Shown here piece after piece: positions 1,274 to 58,171 of a DNA stretch of 64,000 nt. Within the stretch, counting starts at the first letter, position 1; the number at the start of each line of letters is the position of its first letter. Origin of the DNA: Clostridia bacterium (GTDB lineage: Bacteria; Bacillota; Clostridia; JAAYHZ01); NCBI GenBank assembly GCA_050950825.1, contig JBMNIH010000007.1, positions 243,263 through 307,262 on the forward strand, written 5' to 3'. The notes under the pieces are model-generated. The model was not told the DNA's origin, did no database searches, and saw nothing but the letters and a program-made list of their open reading frames with translations. Both the position numbers and the translations under genes were made by a program.

Positions 1274-4200
1274 TGAGAAGAAGTTCGGCATGGAGAAAAA
1301 ACAACCTACGGGAAATTAAAAAAACACCGGGCCGCTATTTTGCCATTCTTGCCATCATCGCATTGGGAGTGGGCTTTTTTTCAGGGTTAATAATTACAAA
1401 ACCGGCCATGGTAAAAACATTGGACAAATACGTAACGGAGCATAAGATGTATGACTTCCGTTTGTTGTCGACGTTAGGCCTTACCGATGAAGACGTAAGC
1501 TTTTTCAATGCAAAAGAAGGAATGACGGCGGAAGGCGCCCTATCCGTCGATTTTATGGCCGCTTTGGATGCAGGGGAAGAGGAAATCATTCTAAAAGCCC
1601 ATTCCGTAACCGAATCGGTAAGCTTGCTTTCGGTCCGGCAGGGTAGGCTTCCGAAGGCCGCTAACGAGTGCGTGCTGGATGCTCGGATGTTTTCGGATGA
1701 CGTTATAGGCACTAAAATTAAAGTATCCGAATCCAACGACAAGGATACGAAGGACCTTTTCGCTTACGACGAATACGAGGTCGTAGGTCTTGTCAATTCG
1801 GTCCATTATATCAGCTACGACCGCGGTACCACCGGCATCGGTACCGGGTCCGTCCATGCCTTCGCATTTATTCCGATTGAAGGCTTTGACGTTGAATATT
1901 TTACGGAAATTCAGCTTTGGCTGCCTCATGATTTTGAAATCTACAGCGAGGAATACGAAGACTTTATATCCTCACGCGAAGAGATTGTAAAGGCCGCTTT
2001 GGAGGAAAGAGCCGATCTTCGCTACAAAAGTATTGTGGACGAAGCAATGGAGAAAATTGCGGACGGCCAAAAGGAATACGATGAGGCGTACGAGGAATAT
2101 TTGAAAGAAAAAGCCGATGCGGAAAAAGAATTGGAAGATGCAAAAAAGGAATTGGAGGATGCCGAAAAGAAAATCCGTGAAGAAGAAGAAAAACTGCTGG
2201 ACGGAGAGAAGAAGCTTCTTGACGGGGAAAAAGAATACCTTGAAGCGGTTAAAGAATACGAGGAATCCTTGGCGGATTTTACTCAAAAGGAAAAGGATGC
2301 TTATGCCGCCTTGGATGCGGCGAAGCAAGAGCTTCAACAACAGCGCCTCCAAGTGGAATCCGGTATATCGCAAATAGAGAAAAGCGGCGTTTTGGAGCAG
2401 TTTGCGCAATTGACGGAAACCATTGCTTCTCTTAAGGAAGCCCTATCGATGATCTCTCCGAGCCTTCCGCAGTACCAAGCATTTAAAATGCAGCTGGCTC
2501 AAGCGGAGGTAGCCCTTCAAAGGATTCATGAATCCGGAGCTCTTGTGCAATACGAGCAATTAAAAGGCGCTCTTGTTCAGATCGAAGAAGGAGAAGTCCG
2601 TTGGGAAAGAGAAAAAGAAATGACCGTCCAAATGCTGGAGGAGGGAAAAGCAAAGCTTTCGGAGGGAAAGATCAGGCTGGATGATGCAAAAGCGGAAATC
2701 GATAAAAACAAAAAGGACATTGAGGAAGGCAAGAAAGCCATCCAAGAGGCAAAGGAGGAATACGAAAAAGGCCTTTTGGACTATGAGAAGGGTAAAAAGG
2801 AAGCCGACGAGGCATTTCAAGAAGCGGAAGAAGAATTGGCCAAGGCTTTAAAAGATTTGGAGAATGCTCGTAAAGAGGTGGAAGACATTCCGAAGCCGAA
2901 AACCTTCATTTTGGACCGTACCTACAACCAAGGATATGCGTCTTTTGAAAACGATTCCTCCATCTTGGAGGGTATCGGAAAGGTCCTTCCCGTTTTCTTT
3001 TTCTTGGTGGCCGCCATGGTATGCTCCGTCACCATGACCCGAATGACCGATGAACACCGTACCCAAATCGGTACGCTAAAAGCTTTAGGGTACGGCGACT
3101 TTAAGATCGCGCGAAAATACATGACCTATGCCGGCAGTGCCGCGTTGATCGGCTGTGTGATCGGGTATTTTATGGGAACGAAATATTTCCCGATGGCCAT
3201 ATGGGCAGCCTACAGCATGATTTACGATATTTCTTCCATTGCATATATCCACGACATACGGCTGGCAGTCATTTCTTTGGCGGTTTCTTTCCTTTGCTCA
3301 GTAGGGGTTACGTATGTATCCTGCAAAAGCGAGCTTTTACAGATGCCGGCCGAGTTAATAAGGCCGAAGGCGCCCAAGCCCGGAAAACGGGTTTTATTGG
3401 AGAGAATTCCCGTCATTTGGAGTCGACTTCGGTTTGTACAAAAAGTGTCCATTCGCAATATATTCCGGTATAAGCGGAGGCTTTTGATGACGGTTTTGGG
3501 GGTTGCAGGGTGCATGTCCATGGTTGTGGCGGCTCTTGGAATCAAGAACTCCGTCAGCAATGTGGTCAACGACCAGTTTGACAACATCATGATTTACGAC
3601 TTTAACATCCGGTTTTCCGAAGGACAAACCTCGGCGGAAAGAGCGGAATTCATAAAAACCTACAAGGACGTATTATCGGAATGCGCATTCGTTTTGGAAA
3701 GCGATATCGAAGCGGTGAAAGGCGAAAGTATAAAAACCGTTACGATGGTGGCTACCGATGACCCGAATATCACTTCCGTGGTTCGGCTGTATTCGAAAAG
3801 CGGAAATATGCCCTATCCTTCCGACGGAAAAGCGGTGTTAAGCCATCGATTGGCGGAAAATTTCAATATTGCGGTAGGAGATACGATCACCGTTCGGATC
3901 AATGACCTTGAAACGGCGGATATTCCCGTGGAGGGCATCTTTGAAAACTATATGGGCAACTTCTTGTTTATGACCGGTAATACCTACAAAGCCTTTTTCG
4001 AAAAAGAGCCCTCTTACCAAAACGCCTATGCTTCTACCGACAAGGAGGATCTGTATTCCGTATCCGCCTTGCTGACCAACGACGACAGCGTGGCCTCCGT
4101 AACGGTTCTTTACGATTTGAGAGTGATGGTGGACAATATGATGGAAAGCCTGAACCGAGTCGTAACCTTGGTCATCTTTTGCGCGGCGGCCTTAAGCTTT

Positions 4201-43675: not shown

Positions 43676-46060
43676 TTACTCCTCCGTCCAAAAATCAAAT
43701 CCCTGTTCTTTTGCAAAAGCAATAAAAGCCTCTGCAATTTCATCAAGGTCGTGGTCAACGATTAGGTGACCATGTTCATCCAGCATCAATTCGCCGTTTC
43801 CATCTTTCTTGTAAATCGGTTCACCGCTGTTGTCTTTACCACCATTTTCAGATACTGCAAAGAAAATCGGATAATCAAGTTCTTCTGCGGCTCTATCTGA
43901 TAACCATGTCTCCCTATATCGAGAAAGCAATTTTTCATCATCAAGTAGATACTTAATCTGTCCTTTAATAGAGCGTGATGCCAGTTTACGTTCAGCCTCT
44001 GCCAATGTCCTTTTGAGTGCAGCTTTTCCTTTTGCTCGTCCTGGCATTGCGGCAAGTTGCGCTTTAAGATTTTCAATGCGCTCTTGAAGTTCATCGTCGC
44101 TTTCGGTCTGTGTTTCTTCGTTTTTGATTTCATCTCCATTATTTTCTAATTCGACGGTATCGTCTTCTTCAAATTCAGCTTGCAGGAACGACATCAAAAG
44201 CGGTGGTAAGTCGTCTTCGGTCAGTTCCTCTCTTTCGCTCAAGGTTCTAATTTCGGCATAATGATTATCCCATTCAGCTATATGCCGATTCTGCACTTCT
44301 CGTATATTGGCTAATTCTTCATCAGTATATTTTTGCAGAAAAACAACGCTGGTTTTTGTACCGGTATGCGGCTTAAAAGTATTAGGATGTAAGCCAACGA
44401 CGGCCAAGATACGAGCTTTACTGAAAAGAAAGTTACGGATAAATAAGTCGTTCGTATTATTGAGACGGCCTTGCGGCAGTACAATTGCCATTCTGCCTCC
44501 GGGCTTTAGAAAATTAAGGTTGCGTTCAATAAATAGAATATCTCGCCCTATTTTAGAGACCGTCTTACCATTCTTTTCTGCAAGTCGGTATTGACGCAAA
44601 ATTTCACGCTCGCTTATGCTACCCGCAAACGGTGGATTGGTCATCAGTATATCAAAATCAAAGTATTGAAAGTTGCGTTGGTTAGCTTCGTCTTGCTCGT
44701 AGTTACTAAATCGGGTTAACAGCGGACGAAAAGCTGCTTTGCCTTCTTCACTCCATTTGGGCGGATTTAGGCTGTTAAGTTCATACACATTTGACTTGCC
44801 ATCGCCTGCAATTAAGTTAAGTGCTTTGGCAATTTTAACGGCTTTAGGACTTGAGTCAATGGCATAGACCATTGAACCTGCATATTCGCTGATAGCAGGA
44901 GGGAATCCATTAACAGTATATTGTTCGCCAGCAATCCAAAAGATGGTATGAACGGTAAAACCTGAAGAACCACAAGCAGTGTCAATTACCCGTTCGTGGA
45001 TTTTAGGATTAAGCATTTTTACGCACATATCAATTACCCAACGTGGGGTAAAATACTGCCCTTTTTTACCTTTAGCAACTTCTGTAATTAGATATTCAAA
45101 GGCTTCATCAATTACTTGAAGGTTAGCATTAAACAGTTTGACATCCTGCAAGAATGAAACACAAGTAAGCAAATGTTCAGGCTTTAGGCGGATTTTTTCA
45201 TCTTGTCCAAATATACCACGCCATTTATCCTTTGCTCTATTAAATAAACCATTTATTTTATCATAGAGTTCTCGCGGTGATTCGCCATAGATGCGAAAAT
45301 GTATCTTATGGTTTCGTGTACGGTCATTTGCCGCTGCCCATTCGTCGTATAATTTTGCATAAATCAGCTTAAAGACTTCATCAAAGGAGTCATCAATTCC
45401 CTCAGCATTAGCCAAAACAAGGTCTTCAAGATCGAGTATGATTTTTTTAAGAGAAAGACGTTCTTTCACTAAACGGTTTTCTTGTTTGAGTTTGTCTATC
45501 GTCCATTGCTCAGTGATGACATCTTGAAGCGTTTGATCTACTGTGGGTATTGATGAAATTTGCGAAAAAATGTTTGGCTCTTCTCGATGAAGGATAACCA
45601 ATTCTTCACCGTTCGACCATACGCCTATGGGTGAGCCTTCAGCATTACAGTATGACTTTAGTTGTTGAAGCCCATCTTTACGTTTGGGCTTTTTAACTTC
45701 AAAGATTATGTATGGGTGTTCACCATCGGTTTGCATAACAACAATATCTGCGCTTTTGTCACTAACGCCTGAGCCAAACCAAACCGCATATTCAACTTTT
45801 ATGCGCTCTTTTGGATAATGATACTCTTCCAGCAATTTTTTTATCCAAAGCTGACGAACGATTTCTTCCGGTTTAGCAGGACGATCTTTATCGCTGGCAA
45901 GGCATTTTAGATAAGGCTTGCCGTTTTTTTCAAATAACTGTGTTTCAAGCCATTTGATATATTCGGTTTTAAATAATGTTAATCTGTGTTTCGTTTCTTC
46001 ACTCTTAAAAATTTCATCAATTCTAAACAAAAAAATCACTCCATTTAGTAAAATAGACAT
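43676..46060 (-). CDS. HsdR_N-type nuclease domain fused to N6-adenine DNA methyltransferase
   Basis: PEEIVRQ..ADIVV..IFEVKK nuclease motif; GQYFTPR, DTACGSSGF, MTNPPF. Confidence 0.9.
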   Translation of the reverse strand: MSILLNGVIFLFRIDEIFKSEETKHRLTLFKTEYIKWLETQLFEKNGKPYLKCLASDKDRPAKPEEIVRQLWIKKLLEEYHYPKERIKVEYAVWFGSGVSDKSADIVVMQTDGEHPYIIFEVKKPKRKDGLQQLKSYCNAEGSPIGVWSNGEELVILHREEPNIFSQISSIPTVDQTLQDVITEQWTIDKLKQENRLVKERLSLKKIILDLEDLVLANAEGIDDSFDEVFKLIYAKLYDEWAAANDRTRNHKIHFRIYGESPRELYDKINGLFNRAKDKWRGIFGQDEKIRLKPEHLLTCVSFLQDVKLFNANLQVIDEAFEYLITEVAKGKKGQYFTPRWVIDMCVKMLNPKIHERVIDTACGSSGFTVHTIFWIAGEQYTVNGFPPAISEYAGSMVYAIDSSPKAVKIAKALNLIAGDGKSNVYELNSLNPPKWSEEGKAAFRPLLTRFSNYEQDEANQRNFQYFDFDILMTNPPFAGSISEREILRQYRLAEKNGKTVSKIGRDILFIERNLNFLKPGGRMAIVLPQGRLNNTNDLFIRNFLFSKARILAVVGLHPNTFKPHTGTKTSVVFLQKYTDEELANIREVQNRHIAEWDNHYAEIRTLSEREELTEDDLPPLLMSFLQAEFEEDDTVELENNGDEIKNEETQTESDDELQERIENLKAQLAAMPGRAKGKAALKRTLAEAERKLASRSIKGQIKYLLDDEKLLSRYRETWLSDRAAEELDYPIFFAVSENGGKDNSGEPIYKKDGNGELMLDEHGHLIVDHDLDEIAEAFIAFAKEQGFDFWTEE

Positions 46061-46101
46061 TATGCAATTTTGTTTGGCTAAACTGTTTTATTGAGCTAAA
46101 T

Positions 46102-46308
46102 TTAGTCATCATCAATAATTTCCATAATATCGGAAATATCACACTTTAATGCCTTGCAAATCTTCACAAGCACATCGGTCGTAACATTTTCGTTTTTACC
46201 CAGTTTTGCCATAGAAGATGTACTAATACCAGCCGCTTCTCTTAAATCTTTCTTTTTCATATCTTTATCAATTAAGAGTTTCCATAGTTTTTTATAGCTT
46301 ACGGCCAT
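46102..46308 (-). CDS. Small XRE-family HTH regulator
   Basis: SYKKLWKLLIDKDMKKKDL...KICKALKCDISDIME. Confidence 0.9.
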   Translation of the reverse strand: MAVSYKKLWKLLIDKDMKKKDLREAAGISTSSMAKLGKNENVTTDVLVKICKALKCDISDIMEIIDDD

Positions 46309-46469
46309 AATTGTCACCTCGCTCGCTATAAAGAATATCATAAAGTAAGCTGAAACACAATAAAAATTTGAGCCCGCAAATTAATTATTGTGTTTTGCGA
46401 AATTCATGCTATAATTTACATAAGGAAATATCTGGTCTGTATGATGAAATGTTATTATGGAGGTACGGT

Positions 46470-48381
46470 ATGGCAAGCGTCAGCTCGTTCAGAGATGTTA
46501 TTGCAAACATGTATTACAATGAACTCTTTGACGAGTTGTCCGAGTATATTGAGGACAACCCGGATAAGCTGGAATCCAACTCATACCGTGTGCAATCACC
46601 GGATGAAGCGGCTTTATCCGATTTTGACATTATAACGATTGACATAACCGACTCGCCAGGTAACAGTATTTTATTTGACGTAATTGTTTCTGCCGAAGTT
46701 GAAATTGCAGAAACAGTACGAAGGAATCGCGAGACTGATGGTATAGAACAATGGTTCCGTATCTCCTGCAGAGCTGACCTTGATGACGGAATTCAGAATT
46801 TTCAAATCAACTCTGTTTCAATATACAACAAGTACAGAGAAAGCAAATTAGGCCGACTGTCTGAGTATTTAGTGCCAATTATAGAAAAGGAACAGTTTGA
46901 CGATGTTGCTACCGAGTTTCTAAGTGAATTTTGCCCGGAAGCATTAAGTACTCCTATGCCTATTCCGGTAGATGAAGTAGTGAAAAGAATGGGGCTTAAG
47001 GTTAAGGAAATCCAGTTAACAAAGCATTTCACTATATTCGGTCAAATAGTTTTTGGAGATTGTACGATAGAATATTACGACAGAAATGAAAGAGCATATA
47101 AGCCTTTGGAAGTTTCAAGAGGAACAATTCTCGTGGATCCTAATGTGTATTTCATGCGAAACGTAGGGTGCATGAACAATACCATTATTCATGAGTGTGT
47201 TCACTGGTATAAGCATAGAAAATACCATGAGTTAGTTAAGACATATAACAGCGATGCTTTACTCATAAGCTGCAGGGTAAACGAAACAACTAAATACAAA
47301 AAGCAATGGACGCCAGAAGACTGGATGGAATGGCATGCTAACGGAATCGCACCTCGCATCCTTATGCCTAAATCAATGACCATTAAAAAGATTGAGGAGC
47401 TAATTAAAAAGAATGAGCTCCTTTTTGGTAATCACGACAGGTTAAATATAATGGAAAATGTCGTGTATGAATTAGCTGACTTCTTCCAGGTGTCAAGGAT
47501 AGCAGCCAAAATAAGGATGCTTGACCTCGGATATAAGGAAGTTGAAGGTGTATATACCTACGTAGATGACCATTTTATCAGCAATTATACATTTAAGGCA
47601 GACTCATTACATAAAAACCAAACATATAGTATTAGCCTAAGCGATTCATTTTTTGAATACTATGCAAATCCTGAATTTGCCAAGATTATAGACAGCGGTA
47701 ATTTTATTTATGTTGACGGTCATTACGTTATTAACGACTCTAAATACATAAAAAGGTTAGAAAATGGAAGCCTTGATCTTACAGACTATGCAAAACTGCA
47801 TGTAGATGAATGCTGTCTTCTGTTTGATTTAAAGCTAAATAAGGCCTCCAAAATGGACATTGTAGTATACCTCGATTCTATAATGTTCCGTAAAGCTACA
47901 CCGGATTATAACAGAGTGCCGACATTTAATCCGGACAAGCATAATATGGAAGTATTTAATCGTTCAGAAGAGCTAAAGAAGTTTCACGAAGAATTCGTCG
48001 AAGAAGGTCAGCATTTGAGCCGTACAACCCAGACATTTTCCCAAGCGGTATACGGACATATCAAAAGGAAAGGCTACAATAAGGTTGTTTTTATAGAAAA
48101 GACTTTGCTTTCAGGAAAAACATATGACAGAATAAAAAATAATGAACTTAACAATCCAACTTTAGAAACCGTTGTTGCAATCTGCATCGGATTGGAGCTT
48201 AGCCCTACATACAATATTAAGGCTTGCCGGATATACTCTCAATAACACTCCACAGCAATTGGCGTATAAAAAGCTTATCCATTCGTATAGAGGGCATTCA
48301 ATATATGAATGCAATGAAGTTTTGGAAGCCTTGGGACTTTCCCCTCTTTGTGCAAAGGCATATAAAGAAATGATAAGTTAA
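46470..48381 (+). pseudogene. ImmA/IrrE-family metallopeptidase with C-terminal HTH, frameshifted near 48210
   Basis: IIHECVHW (HEXXH), EWHAN..RILMP; HTH PTLETVVAICIGLEL continues in another frame as ILRLAGYTL to the stop at 48381. Confidence 0.8.
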
Positions 48382-48388
48382 AAAAATT

Positions 48389-48525
48389 GTTGGACTTCTG
48401 AAGTCCAACTTTTTATATTTTAAACCGGCTATTATAATGAGATTTTAAGCCATTATGCAAAAAAGGCGCAAAAACCTTACTGCATAATGGCTATTTTTTT
48501 GCCAAAATCATGGACTTTAGATGTC
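48389..48525. promoter_or_regulatory. Two related palindromes around a 12-bp inverted repeat
   Basis: GTTGGACTTC-T-GAAGTCCAAC (48389-48409), GGACTTTAGATGTCC (48512-48526), AGCCATTATGCA/TGCATAATGGCT (48448-48492). Confidence 0.6.
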
Positions 48526-48604
48526 CGGACAGGCTTTAACAATTCAAGTAGCATTAAGTCAGAGAGTTGGCCAACCCTCAAAATTGAAGGATGGAGGATA
48601 TAAG

Positions 48605-48833
48605 ATGCAAGACTCTATGAACAATGCAAAAACGCTGTCAATAATTCCAATGCCCATAAAGGGCAGACCATATAAGCATCAGATTCGTGCTTTCAATTTC
48701 ATCTGCAGTCTATTTGGGCTTTTGAAGGGTGGTGGTGTTTCTGCCATTTCCGGATGGGGTGCAGCGCTCCTGATGGAAATGGGCTGACCAGCACCGGAAA
48801 AACGCTTGTCTCAATCGCCATTATAGGAGCATT
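48605..48833 (+). pseudogene. SNF2-family helicase 5' fragment, Walker A split by 8 nt, truncated by IS3
   Basis: PYKHQ..AF Q-motif; AALLMEMG* then TGKTLVSIAIIGAL in another frame. Confidence 0.75.
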
Positions 48834-49827
48834 GGGGGGTGCGGACGAAAACCTGGACTTAAAATAAGAGTCCGGAGGAGGTACTCCCATGTATTCATAT
48901 GAAGACAGAATGAAAGCAGTGGAGTTATACATAAAGTATGACTTAAGTGCTGCTGCTACCATTAGAGAACTTGGGTATCCAAATCGCAAAATGCTAGCTC
49001 GATGGTATAAAGAGTATAAAGAAACAGGCGATTTACACAAACACTATAACAAAAAGGCAAAATATACACCAGAACAGAAGAAGGCTGCTGTCGATTATTA
49101 TCTGGAGCATGGACGCAATATTTCCCGTACGGTGAAGATATTAGGATATCCTCATCGGGATGAACTTGCAAAGTGGATAGATGAATTAGCGCCCGGCAAA
49201 AGAAAAGCTCGCATAAAACACCGGGCAATGGTACAATTTTCCCAGGAGCAGAAAAAAGATGCAGTTATTGAACTGTGTGCAAGGGACGGATCTGCTGCTG
49301 CCGTTGCTGGCAGGATAGGTACCAGCAGGGGCGTACTATATAAATGGAAGAATGAACTGCTCGGTAAGGAGAACACTAAGACTATGAAAAGTTCTAAAAA
49401 ACGATCGCTTTCTGATGACAAGGAGACGCTTTTAACTGAAGTTGAGTCGCTTAAAAAAGAGATATATCGCAAACAAATGGAACTGGATATTCTAAAAAAG
49501 GCGGCAGAAATCGTAAAAAAAGACCTGGGCATCGATCAGCGGAACCTGACAAACAGAGAAAAAGCAATACTGATCGATGCCCTCAGGACTAAATATCCAC
49601 TGAATGATCTGCTTGAGATGACTGGATTGTCAAAAAGCAGTTATTATTATCAAAAAACCCAGAAACAACCTGATAAATATGCCAGCTTGAGAACAGAGGT
49701 AACAGAGATTTTTTATGATAACCAACGCCGCTATGGATACAGGCGGGTACATGCAACAATAAAGGGTAAAGGGACAACAGTTTCAGAAAAGGTTATACGA
49801 AGGATAATGAAAGAAGAACAGCTTATT
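48833..49827 (+). mobile_element. IS3-family element, 3'-truncated (no DDE domain, no right end)
   Basis: TG start at the SNF2 breakpoint; ORF from 48889 with repeated HTHs, SKSSYYY, RYGYRRV..VSEKVIRRIM; stops at the IS91-like element. Confidence 0.85.
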
Positions 49828-49959
49828 GTACCAAACCGCTGCGCGGTAGCTCAACAGTATTTACCCTTTTCGGGTCCTAACCTTTATATTTAATTCCTAT
49901 CACCTTCAAAATCGTATATAATAGCTCCCATTAATTTGATTTTGAAAGGTGGTATTGTT

Positions 49960-50835
49960 ATGTCAACAAATTTATCCGTCGATTTTGATCAAGCGCTCCA
50001 CAATGTTAAGTTTGTTCTTGAGACCTGCCGTTATTCTCAAAGAACAATCTATCTTTATGAGCGACAAATTATTAAGTTTTATCAAACGGTTCAGAAACAT
50101 CCCTGTCAAATCTCTCAGCAAGATGTACTTTTGTATTTGCACGGTCTTGTTAAGCGATCCTTGAGTGCGGATTACATCAACCAAGTCAGAGCAGCCATAC
50201 GTCTTTTCTTCCGTGTAGGATTGCAAAAAACTTTTGATGAGTCTTTACTTCCTCGTGTTCGTAAGGAAACTGTACTGCCTGCCGTATTGTCGCAAAATGA
50301 AATCAAACGAATATTTTCCTACATAAGAAACCCTCGATACAGAGTCATTCTATACCTTTGTTATTCTGCAGGTCTTCGTCTCGGAGAAGCCTTGAATCTA
50401 AAAATCAAAGATATTGACAGTGAGAATATGCAGATCGCCGTTCGAAAAAGTAAAAACAACAAAGATCGCTATACGATACTGTCTCCGGAGTATTTGACGC
50501 TTCTTCGAGATTATTGGAGGCTTTACAGACCTGAAGGTCCTTATCTTTTCCCGGGTGCCTCTTCCGGTAAGCCTATGGCAGCGCAGGGAATCCAAAAGGC
50601 GTTTCATGATGCCGTAATAAAAGCCGGAATCCGCAAAAATGCGTGCATTCATTCTTTACGCCATAGCTTTGCGACACACCTTTACGAATCCGGACAAGAT
50701 ATCGAAGTCATACAATCCCTACTCGGTCATGCAAGCATTTGGACCACCAAACGTTACACGCACTTGGCACGGAAGCATCTTCAAGGGGTGAAGAGTCCGG
50801 CTGACGGTTTCGGAGGTGATTTTAATGTCCTCTAA
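49960..50835 (+). CDS. Tyrosine recombinase with N-terminal SAM-like domain, copy 1
   Basis: LPAVLS, YSAGLRLGE, HSLRHSFATH, LLGH, TTKRY; GAAAGGTGG RBS. Confidence 0.95.
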   Translation: MSTNLSVDFDQALHNVKFVLETCRYSQRTIYLYERQIIKFYQTVQKHPCQISQQDVLLYLHGLVKRSLSADYINQVRAAIRLFFRVGLQKTFDESLLPRVRKETVLPAVLSQNEIKRIFSYIRNPRYRVILYLCYSAGLRLGEALNLKIKDIDSENMQIAVRKSKNNKDRYTILSPEYLTLLRDYWRLYRPEGPYLFPGASSGKPMAAQGIQKAFHDAVIKAGIRKNACIHSLRHSFATHLYESGQDIEVIQSLLGHASIWTTKRYTHLARKHLQGVKSPADGFGGDFNVL

Positions 50836-51982
50836 AATTCAAAAGATCTTTCAGTCCTTTAAAGAGAGATTGCCGTCCCAAAGCTATTCTCCCCAAAAAA
50901 CAAAAGTCATTGACGCAATCTGTAAGTGCCGCACTCCCGAAATGGGAGGATTCGTCCAACGATGTGACGATTGCGGTTACACCGAGGCACATTTCAATTC
51001 CTGCCGAAATCGACATTGTCCCGTTTGTCAAGGGTCCAACCAAAGAAAATGGGTTGAAAAGCAAGTCGCCAACACGCTCCCGATACCCTATTTCCACGTG
51101 GTTTTCACCGTGCCTGCCGAACTCAATCCCTTGTTTCTTGCAAACCCCGACAATATGTTCAATCTGCTCTTTCGTGCCGCTAGTCAAACCGTTTTGACTC
51201 TCTCGGAGAACGAAAAATTTCTCGGGGCGCAACCCGGCTTTATCGCCGTCTTACATACATGGGGGCGAAACATTCAGTTCCATCCCCATTTGCATTGTAT
51301 CGTAACGGGCGGCGGATTGTCCAGCGATCGCAAACGATTCGTTGTTTCCAAAGATTCCTTTTTCCTTCCTCTTAAAGCGATCAGCATCGTTTTCCGGGGA
51401 AAGTTCCTCGAGGAATTGAAAACATTCTTTGTTAATAACACCCTTCAATTGACGGAAGGTTTGGATACCGTTCAAAAAAGGCAACAATTTCTGGACTTAC
51501 TGTACTCCAAGGATTGGGTATGCTATTGCAAGAAACCGTTTAAAGACGCTTCCGCCGTTATACGGTATCTCGGCCGATATACTCACAAAGTGGCGATCTC
51601 GGACAGCCGAATCGTTTCTCATAATCCCGACACGCAGACGGTGCGTTTCCACTGGAAAGATTACAAAGATCACAACAAAATCAAGATCATGCAGCTTTCC
51701 GAAGACGAGTTCGTACGCCGTTTTCTCCTCCATGTGTTGCCCAAAGGATTCATGAAAATTCGACATTACGGATTGCTTGCCAACCGAGGAAGAGAAGAGC
51801 GTTTGGAATTATGCAGAGATTTGCTGAAGGCAACCGCACCCACGGGAGTTATTCAAGAATTCCCCAAGTGCAAAGTTGAACCTCTTGACCGCTGTCCGAA
51901 ATGCGGAAGCCAATCTTTTCTTTTGGTTCCTCGCTCTTTGTACGCGCAGCCGGCTTTATTGCCTACCGGTACCGGACCGTAG
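50825..51982 (+). CDS. IS91-family HUH/Y2 transposase, copy 1
   Basis: NSCRNRHCPVCQ zinc domain, YFHVVFTVP, HTWG..HPHLHCIV, YLGRY, RRFLLHVLPKGF..IRHYG. Confidence 0.95.
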   Translation: MSSKIQKIFQSFKERLPSQSYSPQKTKVIDAICKCRTPEMGGFVQRCDDCGYTEAHFNSCRNRHCPVCQGSNQRKWVEKQVANTLPIPYFHVVFTVPAELNPLFLANPDNMFNLLFRAASQTVLTLSENEKFLGAQPGFIAVLHTWGRNIQFHPHLHCIVTGGGLSSDRKRFVVSKDSFFLPLKAISIVFRGKFLEELKTFFVNNTLQLTEGLDTVQKRQQFLDLLYSKDWVCYCKKPFKDASAVIRYLGRYTHKVAISDSRIVSHNPDTQTVRFHWKDYKDHNKIKIMQLSEDEFVRRFLLHVLPKGFMKIRHYGLLANRGREERLELCRDLLKATAPTGVIQEFPKCKVEPLDRCPKCGSQSFLLVPRSLYAQPALLPTGTGP

Positions 51983-52175
51983 ATTCTTGACAACTGAATA
52001 TCGTGTAAAACGACCCTTTATGGGAGGGCGTAGCTTGCTCTTTTTCAGGCGATTTTCCGCTTTTTCTTCGATTTTCAAGGTGCGAAGTACCGTTTTAACG
52101 TACTTTTAAGCCTAAAATGTTCGAATCAAACCGATGTTGACCTTTTAAAATTCCCATGGGAAAATGAGAACCTAC

Positions 52176-52312
52176 GCGGTTTGGTACAATATGCGTTTAT
52201 CAATTCTCTTGTCCGAATATATTTTAGTTTACAACACCCGCCACATTCACATTGTGGTGGTTTCTTTTTGTGTTGCGAATTGATAAAACGCATAATCATT
52301 GTACCAAACCGC
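52176..52312. other. Long attC-like inverted repeat spanning the tandem junction
   Basis: 15/15 outer arms 52176-52190 / 52298-52312; second stem 52191-52206 / 52277-52293; inner stem-loop 52232-52275. Confidence 0.85.
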
Positions 52313-52432
52313 TGCGCGGTAGCTCAACAGTATTTACCCTTTTCGGGTCCTAACCTTTATATTTAATTCCTATCACCTTCAAAATCGTATATAATAGCTC
52401 CCATTAATTTGATTTTGAAAGGTGGTATTGTT

Positions 52433-53308
52433 ATGTCAACAAATTTATCCGTCGATTTTGATCAAGCGCTCCACAATGTTAAGTTTGTTCTTGAGACCTG
52501 CCGTTATTCTCAAAGAACAATCTATCTTTATGAGCGACAAATTATTAAGTTTTATCAAACGGTTCAGAAACATCCCTGTCAAATCTCTCAGCAAGATGTA
52601 CTTTTGTATTTGCACGGTCTTGTTAAGCGATCCTTGAGTGCGGATTACATCAACCAAGTCAGAGCAGCCATACGTCTTTTCTTCCGTGTAGGATTGCAAA
52701 AAACTTTTGATGAGTCTTTACTTCCTCGTGTTCGTAAGGAAACTGTACTGCCTGCCGTATTGTCGCAAAATGAAATCAAACGAATATTTTCCTACATAAG
52801 AAACCCTCGATACAGAGTCATTCTATACCTTTGTTATTCTGCAGGTCTTCGTCTCGGAGAAGCCTTGAATCTAAAAATCAAAGATATTGACAGTGAGAAT
52901 ATGCAGATCGCCGTTCGAAAAAGTAAAAACAACAAAGATCGCTATACGATACTGTCTCCGGAGTGTTTGACGCTTCTTCGAGATTATTGGAGGCTTTACA
53001 GACCTGAAGGTCCTTATCTTTTCCCGGGTGCCTCTTCCGGTAAGCCTATGGCAGCGCAGGGAATCCAAAAGGCGTTTCATGATGCCGTAATAAAAGCCGG
53101 AATCCGCAAAAATGCGTGCATTCATTCTTTACGCCATAGCTTTGCGACACACCTTTACGAATCCGGACAAGATATCGAAGTCATACAATCCCTACTCGGT
53201 CATGCAAGCATTTGGACCACCAAACGTTACACGCACTTGGCACGGAAGCATCTTCAAGGGGTGAAGAGTCCGGCTGACGGTTTCGGAGGTGATTTTAATG
53301 TCCTCTAA
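52433..53308 (+). CDS. Tyrosine recombinase, copy 2
   Basis: Same protein as copy 1 except SPECL versus SPEYL. Confidence 0.95.
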   Translation: MSTNLSVDFDQALHNVKFVLETCRYSQRTIYLYERQIIKFYQTVQKHPCQISQQDVLLYLHGLVKRSLSADYINQVRAAIRLFFRVGLQKTFDESLLPRVRKETVLPAVLSQNEIKRIFSYIRNPRYRVILYLCYSAGLRLGEALNLKIKDIDSENMQIAVRKSKNNKDRYTILSPECLTLLRDYWRLYRPEGPYLFPGASSGKPMAAQGIQKAFHDAVIKAGIRKNACIHSLRHSFATHLYESGQDIEVIQSLLGHASIWTTKRYTHLARKHLQGVKSPADGFGGDFNVL

Positions 53309-54455
53309 AATTCAAAAGATCTTTCAGTCCTTTAAAGAGAGATTGCCGTCCCAAAGCTATTCTCCCCAAAAAACAAAAGTCATTGACGCAATCTGTAAGT
53401 GCCGCACTCCCGAAATGGGAGGATTCGTCCAACGATGTGACGATTGCGGTTACACCGAGGCACATTTCAATTCCTGCCGAAATCGACATTGTCCCGTTTG
53501 TCAAGGGTCCAACCAAAGAAAATGGGTTGAAAAGCAAGTCGCCAACACGCTCCCGATACCCTATTTCCACGTGGTTTTCACCGTGCCTGCCGAACTCAAT
53601 CCCTTGTTTCTTGCAAACCCCGACAATATGTTCAATCTGCTCTTTCGTGCCGCTAGTCAAACCGTTTTGACTCTCTCGGAGAACGAAAAATTTCTCGGGG
53701 CGCAACCCGGCTTTATCGCCGTCTTACATACATGGGGGCGAAACATTCAGTTCCATCCCCATTTGCATTGTATCGTAACGGGCGGCGGATTGTCCAGCGA
53801 TCGCAAACGATTCGTTGTTTCCAAAGATTCCTTTTTCCTTCCTCTTAAAGCGATCAGCATCGTTTTCCGGGGAAAGTTCCTCGAGGAATTGAAAACATTC
53901 TTTGTTAATAACACCCTTCAATTGACGGAAGGTTTGGATACCGTTCAAAAAAGGCAACAATTTCTGGACTTACTGTACTCCAAGGATTGGGTATGCTATT
54001 GCAAGAAACCGTTTAAAGACGCTTCCGCCGTTATACGGTATCTCGGCCGATATACTCACAAAGTGGCGATCTCGGACAGCCGAATCGTTTCTCATAATCC
54101 CGACACGCAGACGGTGCGTTTCCACTGGAAAGATTACAAAGATCACAACAAAATCAAGATCATGCAGCTTTCCGAAGACGAGTTCGTACGCCGTTTTCTC
54201 CTCCATGTGTTGCCCAAAGGATTCATGAAAATTCGACATTACGGATTGCTTGCCAACCGAGGAAGAGAAGAGCGTTTGGAATTATGCAGAGATTTGCTGA
54301 AGGCAACCGCACCCACGGGAGTTATTCAAGAATTCCCCAAGTGCAAAGTTGAACCTCTTGACCGCTGTCCGAAATGCGGAAGCCAATCTTTTCTTTTGGT
54401 TCCTCGCTCTTTGTACGCGCAGCCGGCTTTATTGCCTACCGGTACCGGACCGTAG
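53298..54455 (+). CDS. IS91-family HUH/Y2 transposase, copy 2
   Basis: Same translation as copy 1. Confidence 0.95.
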   Translation: MSSKIQKIFQSFKERLPSQSYSPQKTKVIDAICKCRTPEMGGFVQRCDDCGYTEAHFNSCRNRHCPVCQGSNQRKWVEKQVANTLPIPYFHVVFTVPAELNPLFLANPDNMFNLLFRAASQTVLTLSENEKFLGAQPGFIAVLHTWGRNIQFHPHLHCIVTGGGLSSDRKRFVVSKDSFFLPLKAISIVFRGKFLEELKTFFVNNTLQLTEGLDTVQKRQQFLDLLYSKDWVCYCKKPFKDASAVIRYLGRYTHKVAISDSRIVSHNPDTQTVRFHWKDYKDHNKIKIMQLSEDEFVRRFLLHVLPKGFMKIRHYGLLANRGREERLELCRDLLKATAPTGVIQEFPKCKVEPLDRCPKCGSQSFLLVPRSLYAQPALLPTGTGP

Positions 54456-54812
54456 ATTCTTGACAACTGAATATCGTGTAAAACGACCCTTTATGGGAGG
54501 GCGTAGCTTGCTCTTTTTCAGGCGATTTTCCGCTTTTTCTTCGATTTTCAAGGTGCGAAGTACCGTTTTAACGTACTTTTAAGCCTAAAATGTTCGAATC
54601 AAACCGATGTTGACCTTTTAAAATTCCCATGGGAAAATGAGAACCTACGCGGTTTGGTACAATATGCGTTTATCAATTCTCTTGTCCGAATATATTTTAG
54701 TTTACAACACCCGCCACATTCACATTGTGGTGGTTTCTTTTTGTGTTGCGAATTGATAAAACGCATAATCATTATATCAAATATAATGATAAGATATTTT
54801 TTGTTAAGTATA

Positions 54813-54847
54813 CTTTACATACATATGCAATTTGGTATAATTTTATA
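54813..54847 (+). repeat. 35-bp target-site duplication of IS1634, left copy
   Basis: CTTTACATACATATGCAATTTGGTATAATTTTATA, identical at 56884-56918. Confidence 0.92.
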
Positions 54848-56883
54848 CTTGACTTTAACAGTTACGGAATATAAAAAACCTTTGTAATCCTTGAGAAATG
54901 CGGCTTACAAAGGTTCTTTTGATTTCAGAAGATTGTTGTACATTTTTCTTAGTTATCTTTTAGTGTCGGCAATAAGTTGACGTATTGCTCCGGGTTTTAG
55001 AAAACGTTGATTAAGTACAAGATTCAAGGCATTACCGATATCCTTTAGAAGGGGATCATAATAAGCTACTCGGTATACGTTATCCTTAACTAAACAAGCC
55101 TGATATTTTCTCAAAGACTTAATTATCTGTTCGGGAGCGTACTCCTTATTCAAACGCTTTGCCAAGAGTCTTAAAATCAGCAATGCAATGAAGCACGTAA
55201 GAAAATGTCCTTCTATCCTTTGTTTCAATGTAACATAAACGGGACGGGTTTCAAGATCGCTTTTGGTAATTCGAAAACTATGTTCAATTTCCCAAAGCTC
55301 ATGATATCTCTTGGCGACTTCGTGATCCGGCATATTGATTTCGCTTGTAATAATTACATAATAACCGTCGTACTTTTCGTCTTCCATGATTTTTTCCGTA
55401 TCCAAATAAGGAATACGTTTCGTATTGATGCATTCGCCGGTTTCGGAATCGTATTCGATATTTTTAATATAACGCAATGCGCTTTGAGCATCTTGTTTTG
55501 TATAGCGTTTGGGATTCGCTATGATTTTTTGGGCCTTTTCAATCAGTTCGGCCCGCTTATGCTTCCGGCGTCCGGCATATAGTTCGTTGTAACATACAAT
55601 CTGTTTAACATCTATTGGAATCGGGCGTTTCTTGCCGTCCGCATGGGTAACCCGAAATTCCTGCGGATACGGTCTGGATTTTAAGCGGAAAACGGGTTCT
55701 CGTTTTTCCGTTTTTTCATCCCACAGATCCGCCGACTTTACCACTCCTTTTTTCTCCACATAACCCGAAGGGTCAAATACAAAAGACTGTAGTTCCTTAT
55801 TGGCTCCTCGTATTTTTTGCGAGAAGATGAAACCGTCTTTTTCAGCCGTTAAAAATGCCACGTTATCACCGCAATTTAACGCTTTATCCGCAACAACGAT
55901 AATTCTTCCCAATCCGTATTCTTCCCGTACCTTCTCAATAATTGGCATCATTGTTTGACTGTCATGGGTATTTCCTTCGAAGAGACGATATGTAATGGGA
56001 ATCGCATCCGAATCCAGCAATAAACCCATTTGTACCAAAGGGTTACCGGTATTATCTTTGCAATAACCTTTCTTACGAAACTTGTCTTCTTCGTCAATCT
56101 CAAAATAGTAATTGGTAACGTCATAAAAAGTTATGTCGGTCTTGCGATTGTAATGGATTCTTACCTGCTCATGGAGATGAAGAAGAAGGTCTTCTCGAAA
56201 ATCGGAAAAGTAATCCAATGCCCGATATACGTCATACCAATCGCAATTGAAAGGTCTTGCTATTCTTTCTTTCTCTTGAAAACTCGCTATTTTTGATCCC
56301 GGTGCGAGTATGCGTGTGTAGACCAAAAGTTGCATGACATCGTTTAGGGAATAGTCCATAGACTTACTGTGCTGACGGTTAATCAAGAATTGATCAATTT
56401 TGAGTTCATGATAAATTCGGCTTAAAGGCAGAAATCCCAAATGGTACATGGCATCTTCGTTCTCATCCATTACTTCATTTGTACTTACATACCCTAAATA
56501 GACATCTTCTTCGGCTTCTTGCTTTTTCTTCTCCAAAGTACGTAAACGTGCTACTTCTTTAAAGTGAGCAATCGGATCTTCAAAACGATCCAAATATTCG
56601 TCAACGTAACCTAAATTTTCGATTACATTATGCTTTACTTTCTTTGTTTTCGGATCTCTATAACCTTCGACAAAACTCAAATTTATACGACCGTTTTTTT
56701 GCGGAGTAACTTTCAGGTACATGACCGTCCTCCAAAGATCTATATTCTTAACTGATTATATCATAATACACAACAATAGTCAACAATATTAAGAAAATAA
56801 TTTGACATAAAAAAAGCGATCTAACAGCGTCATATCAATGGTTTTCATAATCTTTTTAGGACTAGTTAACTGTTAAACTCGCG
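54848..56883 (-). mobile_element. IS1634-family element (2,036 bp)
   Basis: Imperfect IRs CTTGACTTTAACAGTTA / TAACTGTTAAACTCGCG, long direct repeat, one transposase. Confidence 0.9.
54953..56722 (-). CDS. IS1634-family DDE transposase
   Basis: FYDVTNYYFE, GYCKD, FEGNTHD, VVADKA, YHELWEIEHSFRITKS, RPVY, GHFLTCFIAL. Confidence 0.93.
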   Translation of the reverse strand: MYLKVTPQKNGRINLSFVEGYRDPKTKKVKHNVIENLGYVDEYLDRFEDPIAHFKEVARLRTLEKKKQEAEEDVYLGYVSTNEVMDENEDAMYHLGFLPLSRIYHELKIDQFLINRQHSKSMDYSLNDVMQLLVYTRILAPGSKIASFQEKERIARPFNCDWYDVYRALDYFSDFREDLLLHLHEQVRIHYNRKTDITFYDVTNYYFEIDEEDKFRKKGYCKDNTGNPLVQMGLLLDSDAIPITYRLFEGNTHDSQTMMPIIEKVREEYGLGRIIVVADKALNCGDNVAFLTAEKDGFIFSQKIRGANKELQSFVFDPSGYVEKKGVVKSADLWDEKTEKREPVFRLKSRPYPQEFRVTHADGKKRPIPIDVKQIVCYNELYAGRRKHKRAELIEKAQKIIANPKRYTKQDAQSALRYIKNIEYDSETGECINTKRIPYLDTEKIMEDEKYDGYYVIITSEINMPDHEVAKRYHELWEIEHSFRITKSDLETRPVYVTLKQRIEGHFLTCFIALLILRLLAKRLNKEYAPEQIIKSLRKYQACLVKDNVYRVAYYDPLLKDIGNALNLVLNQRFLKPGAIRQLIADTKR

Positions 56884-56918
56884 CTTTACATACATATGCA
56901 ATTTGGTATAATTTTATA
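56884..56918 (+). repeat. 35-bp target-site duplication, right copy; contains the promoter for the next gene
   Basis: TTTACA-N16-TATAAT with TG extension. Confidence 0.9.
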
Positions 56919-56946
56919 GTGTAAAAAAATGTAGAAGGATAAACTT

Positions 56947-57888
56947 ATGATTTCATACCTTAAGCAAAGAAGCAAAGTCTTTTATGACGAACTGCTTTCT
57001 AATTTATTTTTTATTGCTATACTTGTTGCATACATACTGCTTAAAGCAATTAGCAATTTAACCTACGGCACATCCTATTTCACGGCATTTCGCAGCGGCA
57101 TTATGGGGGTTATCATGTATGTTGCGGGAATGTATGCAGTCAATCTGGCCTCAAATAATACCGACGAGAATAAGCAATCTTTTCGGATGGATACGAAAGT
57201 AGCCAAAAGAGGATTGGCGATATCGGCAGTATATTTCCTGTTCCTTTTTACTACGATCATTGACAATCTTCAGAGAAAGAACATTCTTTCCGGAGCTCCC
57301 GTTCTTTCCTTCCTGCCGGGATACAACCGGCTGATACTTGCCATAGAAAGCTTTTCTCAATCTGTTTCCGAAATTGCAAGCTTCGTGTTACCGGAGCAAA
57401 TTAAGAATATAATCCTGGGAAATCTGATTTATGTACTAATACCGCTTATCATTTTTAAGCTATCGGGTTATCGGTTTAAAGGATTCTTTTCATTGAAAAA
57501 CACAAGAGCAAGCCGGCCAATTCTTGGCATATATTTCATAATGTTTTTCTCTAGCGGTGTTACCGTAAAAAAAATTTGGGGTTTTGTTTACAGCCTTCTT
57601 TACCCTGCATTATGCGAGGAATTCTTTCATAGGGGTATTATATTCCGATCCGCAAGCAGTATTTTTAAAAAAGTTCCTGTCGCATTATTGGTAGGTACTA
57701 TTGCCTTTAGTTTAATGCATATTCCCGATTATTTTTTCCGAATATATAACGGTAATTTACTATTATCTTTTTCTAATATTGCCGATTTACTTCTGTTCGG
57801 TTTCTTACTGGCATACGGGTATCAAAAAACCGGGACACTATTGCCCTGGATACTCGTACATGCATTATCCGATGCACTTTATCTTTAA
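56947..57888 (+). CDS. CPBP (CAAX/Abi) intramembrane metalloprotease
   Basis: EEFFHRG, FSLMH, HALSD; multi-TM. Confidence 0.9.
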   Translation: MISYLKQRSKVFYDELLSNLFFIAILVAYILLKAISNLTYGTSYFTAFRSGIMGVIMYVAGMYAVNLASNNTDENKQSFRMDTKVAKRGLAISAVYFLFLFTTIIDNLQRKNILSGAPVLSFLPGYNRLILAIESFSQSVSEIASFVLPEQIKNIILGNLIYVLIPLIIFKLSGYRFKGFFSLKNTRASRPILGIYFIMFFSSGVTVKKIWGFVYSLLYPALCEEFFHRGIIFRSASSIFKKVPVALLVGTIAFSLMHIPDYFFRIYNGNLLLSFSNIADLLLFGFLLAYGYQKTGTLLPWILVHALSDALYL

Positions 57889-58171
57889 TAAAAGCTGCTG
57901 TAGATTGATTGATAGCCTCCCATTAAAAATTACATATCAAGTGGGAGGTCTATCATCTTGCACGCCGGATTCCGAGACAAAGATCTTGTGTATGTTGTTT
58001 GAAAAATAATAATCATTGCCATTAGCTAATGTTATGGATCCCCTTGCGAAAGGTCTACCCATTCACGTTCGTCGTAATCAGTGGCATATGCTACTGTTGG
58101 CCAAATAGCACCGGTCTCGAAATGTATGCTGTTGTAGGGTCCAATCATATCCGGTACCATACCGACCCGTA

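Follow-up and report, generated by a model that had tools for sequence, protein, structure and literature searches.

Several described systems bring folded or circular single-stranded DNA together with HUH enzymes or tyrosine recombinases. From copies integrated in tandem, an HUH replication protein of CTX-type phages generates a single-stranded circle, and attP(+) consists of two inverted sites, about 90-110 nt apart, which fold into a XerCD recombination site. IS608, a member of the IS200/IS605 group, combines a Y1 transposase, a subterminal hairpin and 4-nt guides with a single-stranded circular intermediate. The locus analysed here lies in a 64,000-nt stretch of a Clostridia bacterium assembly (contig JBMNIH010000007.1, positions 243,263 to 307,262; called the window below), where a 2,473-bp element occupies 49825-54770 as a dimer of two copies joined head to tail (a direct repeat with a spacing of 2473). 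The element belongs to an IS91 subclade in which an IntI/XerA-like tyrosine recombinase (YR) gene is translationally coupled to a Y2-HUH transposase (TnpA) gene. For IS91 itself, a 2026 study reports that a bottom-strand single-stranded circle with an ori-ter junction is the sole form inserted, by TnpA alone, and that a single subterminal palindrome adjoins the ter cleavage site (PMC13181058). YRs linked to IS91 elements were described in a preprint as the closest relatives of integron integrases, devoid of the IntI insert (10.1101/542381). The YR + IS91 gene pair is already catalogued and annotated, the YR having so far been given no role. Here we describe a hairpin which spans the head-to-tail joint of the element; this junction is probably the site at which a single-stranded circular copy is cut and inserted.

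The hairpin had first been proposed in a sequence-only reading of the window, and its main features were confirmed. The arm GCGGTTTGGTACAAT (52176-52190, inside the right end of the first copy) and ATTGTACCAAACCGC (52298-52312, the left end of the second copy) are 100% complementary over 15 nt and lie 107 nt apart. With up to two mismatches allowed, this 15-mer occurs four times in the window (two arms and two left ends) against 0.11 +/- 0.31 expected, a count reached in none of 100 shuffles. The inverted repeat goes on past a 6-nt gap, with GAGAACCTAC on the arm side facing GAGCTAC + CGCGCA on the left-end side. Immediately inside the arm, helix 2 (52191-52293) is formed by stems of 16 and 17 nt (52191-52206 and 52277-52293) with one extra A, and its loop holds a terminator-like stem-loop (52238-52260) with a T run. 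A one-sided 4-nt bulge, AATC (52294-52297), constitutes the final bases of the right end, and the joint follows directly after it; bulge, stem with its extra base and inner stem-loop were all found, in the sequence and in the folds, as originally depicted. When the two strands of 52166-52322 were folded as single-stranded DNA, the plus strand gave -36.3 kcal/mol (z -7.8) and the minus strand -36.6 kcal/mol (z -6.9), and 0 of 200 shuffles were as good. At a single-copy right end the inner helix alone still forms, so that the complete structure exists only across the head-to-tail joint.

Further sequence elements of the two ends, all on the plus strand, are arranged around this hairpin. The left-end motif L, composed of an X box ATTGTACC and AAACCGC, occupies 52298-52312 at the junction and 49825-49839 at the outer left end, and its inverse, the subterminal arm, is repeated at 54649-54663. 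L runs into a small, ter-like palindrome, ACCGC-TGC-GCGGT (52308-52320, also 49835-49847), whose equivalent likewise follows the X box in relatives and is present in IS91 (GCAGCC-TGAC-GGCTGC). A conserved box ATTCCCATGG, of the CCCATAG type seen in relatives, lies 16 nt upstream of the arm (52150-52159, also 54623-54632). In a relative with 71% identity overall (G666), the first 30 nt of the left end are identical, and the arm is also the same. On the opposite, minus strand, 49825-49854 and 52298-52327 contain a promoter-like TTGAGC-18-TACAAT whose second hexamer is preceded by TG and which is directed out of the left end; its -10 hexamer is the X box itself, and at a joint it would read into the adjoining right end.

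The same architecture recurs among related elements. Transposase relatives were found at E <=1e-30 in 16 of 399 sampled genomes of the class and at E <=1e-60 in 23 of 401 sampled genomes of the phylum; matches also came from rhizobial plasmids and from 593 metagenome stretches, 80 of which were kept for analysis. The YR gene is directly upstream of tnpA in 68 of these 80 (ten of the other 12 leave no room for it, and one is a decayed copy), and in most genome loci at >=37% identity as well. The element of the window itself was found in contigs of 16 digester and bioreactor studies. For each locus, the 400-450 nt preceding the YR gene were compared with the 700-900 nt following tnpA, and the stretches of best complementarity were taken; 18 of 68 metagenome loci and 1 of 28 genome loci were excluded for short flanks. 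Sixteen of the 78 evaluated loci scored <24, and 12 of the 62 which passed were discarded by eye, the top-scoring pair in each being a different repeat or a palindrome (L033, L129, L057, L095, L089, L034, L126, L166, L159, L167, L008 and L045). A pair of the family type was present in 50 of the 78 YR+IS91 loci, from Bacillota to Sinorhizobium, and the S. meliloti plasmid NZ_CP021803.1 has the same layout. The kind of element is not confined to Bacillota, the group in which the sequence-only reading knew of no established mechanism of this sort, but extends to metagenomes and rhizobial plasmids.

Across the family, the left motif reads [T/A/G]TG-N-AC, followed by a (T/C/G)AAAC-like stretch, CGC and the small palindrome, while the arm is set back from the right end by about 100-125 nt. 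A CCCATAG-type box <=45 nt upstream of the arm was recognized in 37 of the 50 loci by a strict pattern, and near variants occur in the majority of the remaining 13. Of the 50 loci, 36 have a recognizable helix 2, which in most of them starts within about 2 nt of the end of the arm; its sequence is free and its pairing is kept. The bulge measures 4-9 nt in relatives, often contains CTA(A/G), and is followed by R^TT (the caret marks the boundary) in 24 of 35 joints (GTT in 10, ATT in 14). Covariation of arm and left end, which had been suggested as a check on the hairpin, is indicated by agreement of columns: in 26 elements with 15-nt cores in register, the variable columns of L agree with the reverse complement of the arm in 19-26 of the 26, and at core column 5, where all four bases are used, agreement holds in 24 of 26. 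Because the pairs were found through best complementarity, their pairing is partly achieved by construction; support for it rests on the shuffles (z up to 18), on the common motif and spacing, and on the wobble asymmetry described below. RNAalifold gave no consensus for 12 minus-strand right ends, whose stems were too diverged for alignment by MAFFT, and the helices were scored element by element, each on its own sequence. The comparison shows that the left end of a circle or tandem pairs with the subterminal arm to give helix 1, and that helix 2, the right-end hairpin, adjoins it without a gap, which places the joint at the edge of a one-sided 4-nt bulge between the two helices.

Mismatches within the helices are distributed unequally between the two strands. 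In helix 1 we counted 51 A.C juxtapositions on the plus strand, each corresponding to G.T on the minus strand, versus 9 G.T on the plus strand, and in helix 2 the respective numbers were 42 and 7. After removal of near-duplicates the counts were 44 v 9 for helix 1 and 34 v 5 for helix 2, and when elements were counted instead, 27 v 2 and 22 v 2. The bias is spread over many different positions in both helices, and it cannot have been created by the search, since all mismatches were treated alike. The inner stem-loop, taken as a plus-strand control, yielded 3 v 4 wobbles in 10 elements, which is too few. Such a bias is the result either of selection for pairing of the minus strand or of C-to-T change of the single-strand type on that strand, and on either account the minus strand would spend time in the single-stranded state. 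The folded single-stranded form envisaged by the sequence-only reading is thus backed by the strand-specific wobble of the relatives.

Boundaries of the insertions were established by comparison of flanking sequences. In all four cases available in the source genome (three right junctions and one remnant of a right end), as well as in G666, the right flank starts with ATTATA(Y)(C/A)A, whereas left flanks vary. The word abutting the right (ori) end of the dimer is ATTATATCA (54771-54779, plus strand); by contig, the right flanks are ATTATACCA (C10), ATTATATCA (C7 and C4), ATTATATAA (the remnant) and, in G666, ATTATACCA, and an additional flank, ATTATACCA+TACC, was found in sequencing run X1. 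The target word resembles the element's own first bases (ATTGTACCA). A sister genome (G002) retains the orthologous empty site ATTATAACA, reading ..GCTTTG^ATTATAACACAA without interruption, and contigs of three of four runs (X1, X15 and X17) join the flanks of the C10 copy, passing from 1500 to 3974 of locus L001 with 2,473 nt skipped and 3 ambiguous letters. These observations indicate exact, simple insertion without target duplication. Uncovered parts of L001 in X4 or X17 are uninformative; run X4 contributed a 2,503-nt contig bearing the joint of right end to left end, although contigs cannot separate a free circle from a tandem.

Integration at A^TT, as initially proposed, agrees with the boundary in so far as the latter is ambiguous over ATT, which all three junctions have in common, but the element goes into an 8-9-nt target, ATTATAYCA, resembling its left end. 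Among homologues, R^TT prevails at the joints, and the relatives in G549 end ..CTCCTT^CAAGAAC, that is CTTG^ on the minus strand, the standard target of IS91. As in IS91, the ori end adjoins a defined word at the insertion site, which here has 8-9 nt in place of 4. Right-end tips such as ..ATCTATCG^ also resemble the tip of IS91, ..CCTATCGAT^. The arm can pair with the target ATTATAYCA at 7-8 of 9 positions. Palindromes around the targets, such as TAATTGTG^ATTATAC^CACAATTA at C10, were indistinguishable from chance among the 3-4 AT-rich sites available.

The two gene products are those which the sequence-only reading had named, as confirmed by Pfam and NCBIfam domains. The YR gene (49960-50835 in copy 1, 52433-53308 in copy 2, plus strand) encodes 291 amino acids with Phage_integrase (1e-40) and Phage_int_SAM_4 domains. 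The transposase gene (50825-51982 and 53298-54455, plus strand), whose start overlaps the YR stop by 11 nt, encodes 385 amino acids with Y2_Tnp (2e-60) and Zn_Tnp_IS91 (1e-29) domains; it scores 423 bits against the transpos_IS91 equivalog (cut-off 125), and H153/H155/H157 and Y248/Y252 are invariant across 9 relatives. The single-domain Y1 HUH of IS200/IS605 was not found, the transposase being Y2_Tnp / IS91. The best NCBIfam matches of the YR, both under the cut-off, are XerA_Arch (206.6 bits) and the integron integrase TIGR02249 (188.3 bits, cut-off 265), the latter split in two stretches with profile positions ~177-250 lacking a counterpart. Among sequences in the PDB, the nearest are XerA (4a8e and 5hxy), then IntI4 (2a3v), to which the match is likewise split. 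The IntI-specific insert of the catalytic domain was not detected in the comparisons with the TIGR02249 profile and IntI4 2a3v. The catalytic R, H, R, H and Y are kept in 71-72 of 72 YRs, and no alignment column could be assigned to the catalytic Lys.

When set beside the described systems, the element shows the IS91 family features tested and fails four of the five integron features tested; it is not an integron. With IS91, IS801 and IS1294 it shares a Y2-HUH transposase that carries a zinc domain at its N-terminus, two dissimilar ends, of which the ori end follows tnpA, a small palindrome next to the ter cut, and a probable relevance of the bottom strand. The tandem dimer, the joint-bearing contig of run X4 and the minus-strand wobble bias are consistent with rolling-circle transposition through a bottom-strand circle. 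Subterminal palindromes of the IS91 type appear to be represented by ACCGC-TGC-GCGGT beside the left end and by helix 2 with the inner stem-loop at the right end. Abutment of a specific oligonucleotide to the ori end and lack of target duplication are common features too (PMC13181058). In IS91, as here, an upstream gene overlaps the start of tnpA; that gene is orf121 there, in contrast to a tyrosine recombinase with intact catalytic residues in our element. The element also differs in having a target of 8-9 nt (ATTATAYCA) instead of 4, and a left-end/arm helix of >=15 nt, which was not found in IS91 or in the IS1294-like and IS801-like loci.

The wobble bias points to the minus strand, antisense to the genes, as the one that folds, as in attC, but it does not show which enzyme uses the fold. 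The likeness to attC/IntI otherwise lies in a hairpin downstream of the genes, an outer box completed by the element's own first bases only in circular form, a joint at R^TT, and a recombinase from the group nearest IntI. In other respects the comparison with attC drawn by the sequence-only reading did not hold: the boxes are ATTGTACC / GGTACAAT and not GTTRRRY / RYYYAAC, the spacer is a one-sided bulge rather than a bubble, arm and helix 2 abut (offset ~0), the helices are 15-17 bp long versus ~7 bp, and the recombinase is devoid of the IntI-specific insert. Boxes which do fit attC occur in some relatives (GTTCAAC / GTTGAAC, GTCCAAC / GTTGGAC). The one extra A in helix 2 could be compared with an extrahelical base, and it is not regular in relatives. 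Unlike in integrons, each mobile unit of 2,473 bp carries its own YR gene together with a rolling-circle transposase, and there is no attI platform; no cassette array was found beside the element in 46000-58000. CTX attP(+) resembles our case in the single-stranded circle expected from a tandem, the folded inverted sites and Xer-like chemistry; it differs in that our element, a 2.5-kb insertion sequence and not a phage, encodes its recombinase and uses a short AT-rich word, not dif, as the target. IS608 resembles it in that an internal stretch at the foot of a hairpin can pair with both cleavage site and target, whereas our element has Y2, a recombinase and guides of 8-15 nt or more, and the left ends of several relatives match their targets at no more than 2-3 nt.

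In the explanation which we favour, and to which we assign an even chance, the hairpin is the folded minus-strand ori-ter junction of a rolling-circle transposon and is processed by TnpA. By analogy with IS91, TnpA would nick the minus strand between the copy of the target (5'-GRTATAAT on this strand) and the right end, peel the strand toward the left end, cut it after 5'-GGTACAAT, 10 nt past the small left-end palindrome, and close a single-stranded circle. The fold would then hold the two ends together and present the joint, which TnpA would cut and join to a single-stranded, left-end-like target ATTATAYCA, the outcome being simple insertion with no duplication. A head-to-tail dimer could arise from read-through of the ter end, or from insertion beside a resident left end mimicking the target. 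The YR, which is catalytically conserved and co-inherited with helix 1, might act on the same fold or handle tandem or double-stranded circular forms. What speaks for TnpA, by analogy, is that it is intact, that the target rule, small palindrome and right-end tip are all IS91-like, and that IS91 needs nothing else.

A number of points weigh against this explanation. HUH nucleases cut single-stranded DNA, yet the 5' side of the joint is placed in a perfect duplex of 15 nt (more than 30 nt in some relatives), which suits a duplex-binding recombinase better. The YR is given no defined job, although the conservation of its catalytic residues implies that it does cleave DNA at some point. Six loci without an adjacent YR (IS91, an IS1294-like and an IS801-like element, a Photobacterium element, L041 and L107) yielded no helix 1, and so this helix tracks the recombinase rather than the transposase; L107 is a closer relative, IS91 and the other four are more distant, and all carriers of helix 1 may form one clade. 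One element, G021a (4 copies, 2,531-2,535 bp), is a true exception devoid of left-end/arm complementarity, its left end TAACGTTTAGTG.. resembling the arm in the same orientation and being unpaired with it. Left end and target have no more than R-TT in common in several lineages, and pairing of arm and target cannot therefore be a general rule. The wobble bias could partly stem from minus-strand C-to-T mutation and not from selection for pairing, an alternative hinted at by a modest C>G skew on the plus strand in 47 of 58 elements; moreover, the sequences are related and not independent, hence p-values are overstated.

Some of these difficulties would be relieved if TnpA only made the minus-strand circle, and the IntI-like YR bound the folded junction as a site like attC or the CTX-phage attP(+), a proposal which we regard as possible and less probable than processing by TnpA. 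Helix 1 would then be the cleaved box and helix 2 the second one, one strand would be exchanged with R^TT targets, and replication would finish the process. Apart from the co-occurrence of helix 1 with the YR and its absence from the six loci mentioned, this idea draws on the preserved catalytic residues, on best scores against XerA/IntI models and structures, and on the fold apparently lying on the strand antisense to the genes, as in attC. Helices of 15-20 bp each would fit one monomer apiece, the joint is R^TT in 24 of 35, GTTGAAC / GTTCAAC of some relatives fit GTTRRRY / RYYYAAC, and the site, cassette-like, is complete only in the circle. Recombinases of IS91 elements were also placed beside IntI in the preprint (10.1101/542381). 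Against this proposal, IS91 TnpA is reported to insert the circle without a recombinase (PMC13181058). Recombination by the YR is further disfavoured by the lack of the IntI insert, which reads extrahelical bases; by a spacer confined to one strand (0 vs 4-9 nt), with boxes that abut without a central region; by the absence of dyad likeness between the two helices; by conservation of the target solely on the left-end-like side; by the classical IS91 CTTG at ends of the G549 type; and by the tandem of the window, which remains unresolved into single copies.

Two further explanations dispense with a folded DNA junction. The left end and the arm might simply be inverted double-stranded binding sites for the YR or TnpA, uniting the ends, with the hairpin as a by-product. 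Conservation of the L/arm core across elements whose transposases are just 42-50% identical, and co-variation of the two copies, expected if one protein reads both, would be in accord with it. We nevertheless consider it improbable: G.T mismatches on one strand only, in both helices, are not predicted, and it leaves unexplained both helix 2, with its free sequence and kept pairing flush with the arm, and the position of the arm, ~100-125 nt inside the end and meeting the left end only across the joint. Even less credible is a role in RNA, in which the YR-tnpA mRNA would use the structure as its terminator or 3' element, or the outward-facing promoter-like site of the left end (TTGAGC-18-TACAAT, minus strand) would give rise to an antisense RNA. 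The inner stem-loop at 52238-52260 with its T run is terminator-like, and T-rich tails occur in 5 of 10 relatives having the stem-loop, which is, on the other hand, absent in 22 short-loop relatives. Contigs of the element reach 30-55x the depth of the flanks in RNA-library runs (X15, X17) vs 6-9x in DNA runs (X1, X4); contig depth is a poor measure, and this is no more than a hint of strong transcription of the element in communities of digesters. The wobble bias on the minus strand excludes mRNA for helices 1 and 2, helix 1 requires joined ends, RNA initiated at the left-end promoter would begin beyond L and so would be deprived of the L half of helix 1, and promoter-like hits numbered 8 against 4.9 +/- 2.3 expected.

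The source genome (the assembly to which the window belongs) contains four full copies of the element, that is, the dimer and two identical single copies on contigs C10 and C4, and a 56-nt right-end remnant. Copies 1 (49825-52297) and 2 (52298-54770) of the tandem, both on the plus strand, differ at a single base, 50492 A versus 52965 G. The G of copy 2 changes a recombinase codon from TAT to TGT (Tyr to Cys), and the C10 and C4 copies have the form of copy 1, to which they are identical. The remnant (C4, 567529-567584; locus L005) begins within the inner stem-loop, and a target-like ATTATATAACAG still adjoins it. To the left of the dimer, a truncated open reading frame of an IS3-type transposase (48889-49824, plus strand; HTH_Tnp_1, HTH_28 and HTH_21 domains) is interrupted by the left end of copy 1. 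Its 3' part was found neither to the right of the dimer nor elsewhere in the genome, in which the piece 48889-49824 is unique; hence the sequences on the two sides of the dimer do not make up a single intact target, and the interrupted frame suggests a rearrangement or a one-ended event. Farther to the right, an identical 35-nt direct repeat (54813-54847 and 56884-56918) surrounds a ~2-kb element encoding a 589-aa DDE_Tnp_1 transposase on the minus strand (54953-56722). This element has copies on three other contigs, and 35 nt is unusually long for a target duplication.

Several relatives deserve a separate mention. The left end of the G021a copies L032/L033 (2.53 kb) reads TAACGTTTAGTGTT.., a 19-bp perfect palindrome with CTTGTAC lies 35-80 nt inside, and their right flanks all begin with TTA-N-GTG. 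In L039 (G298), a decayed relative with the left end ATTATACCAAATCGC, the X box is identical to the word that the element of the window has as its target. In L080 (G415), a full copy is preceded directly at its left end by a partial right end that has helix 2 but no arm (..AAAATG^TTGCAC...); the left break of this partial end falls exactly at the border of arm and helix 2, as if the arm itself could be cut. Locus L131, considered as a YR-less member with an inverted repeat, was rejected as it is a decayed copy with a remnant of the recombinase.

We found no description of the junction-spanning helix, its conservation, the strand-specific wobble or the 8-9-nt target in the literature searched, which included few subscription journals and no supplements. 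These four features, with conservation of the helix from Bacillota to Alphaproteobacteria, appear to be new. The YR+IS91 elements form an abundant family, and the role of their integron-like recombinases is made testable by a defined DNA structure, conserved and specific to one strand, together with a precisely located joint. Target choice of IS91 is extended from 4 to 8-9 nt, and left end and target may both be read by the internal arm, which would be of interest for programmable insertion. It is tempting, if still doubtful, to see in the YR+IS91 elements self-mobile, cassette-like units, in which the HUH enzyme would make a minus-strand circle and a sister of IntI would recombine the folded junction with R^TT by single-strand exchange. 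Were the folded junction recombined by the YR, the arm would be an 8-15-nt DNA guide which could be rewritten to retarget insertion, and the reaction would be a free-living relative of that of attC and IntI, and a plausible source thereof. The finding also bears on whether recombination of folded single-stranded DNA of the attC kind has relatives outside integrons.

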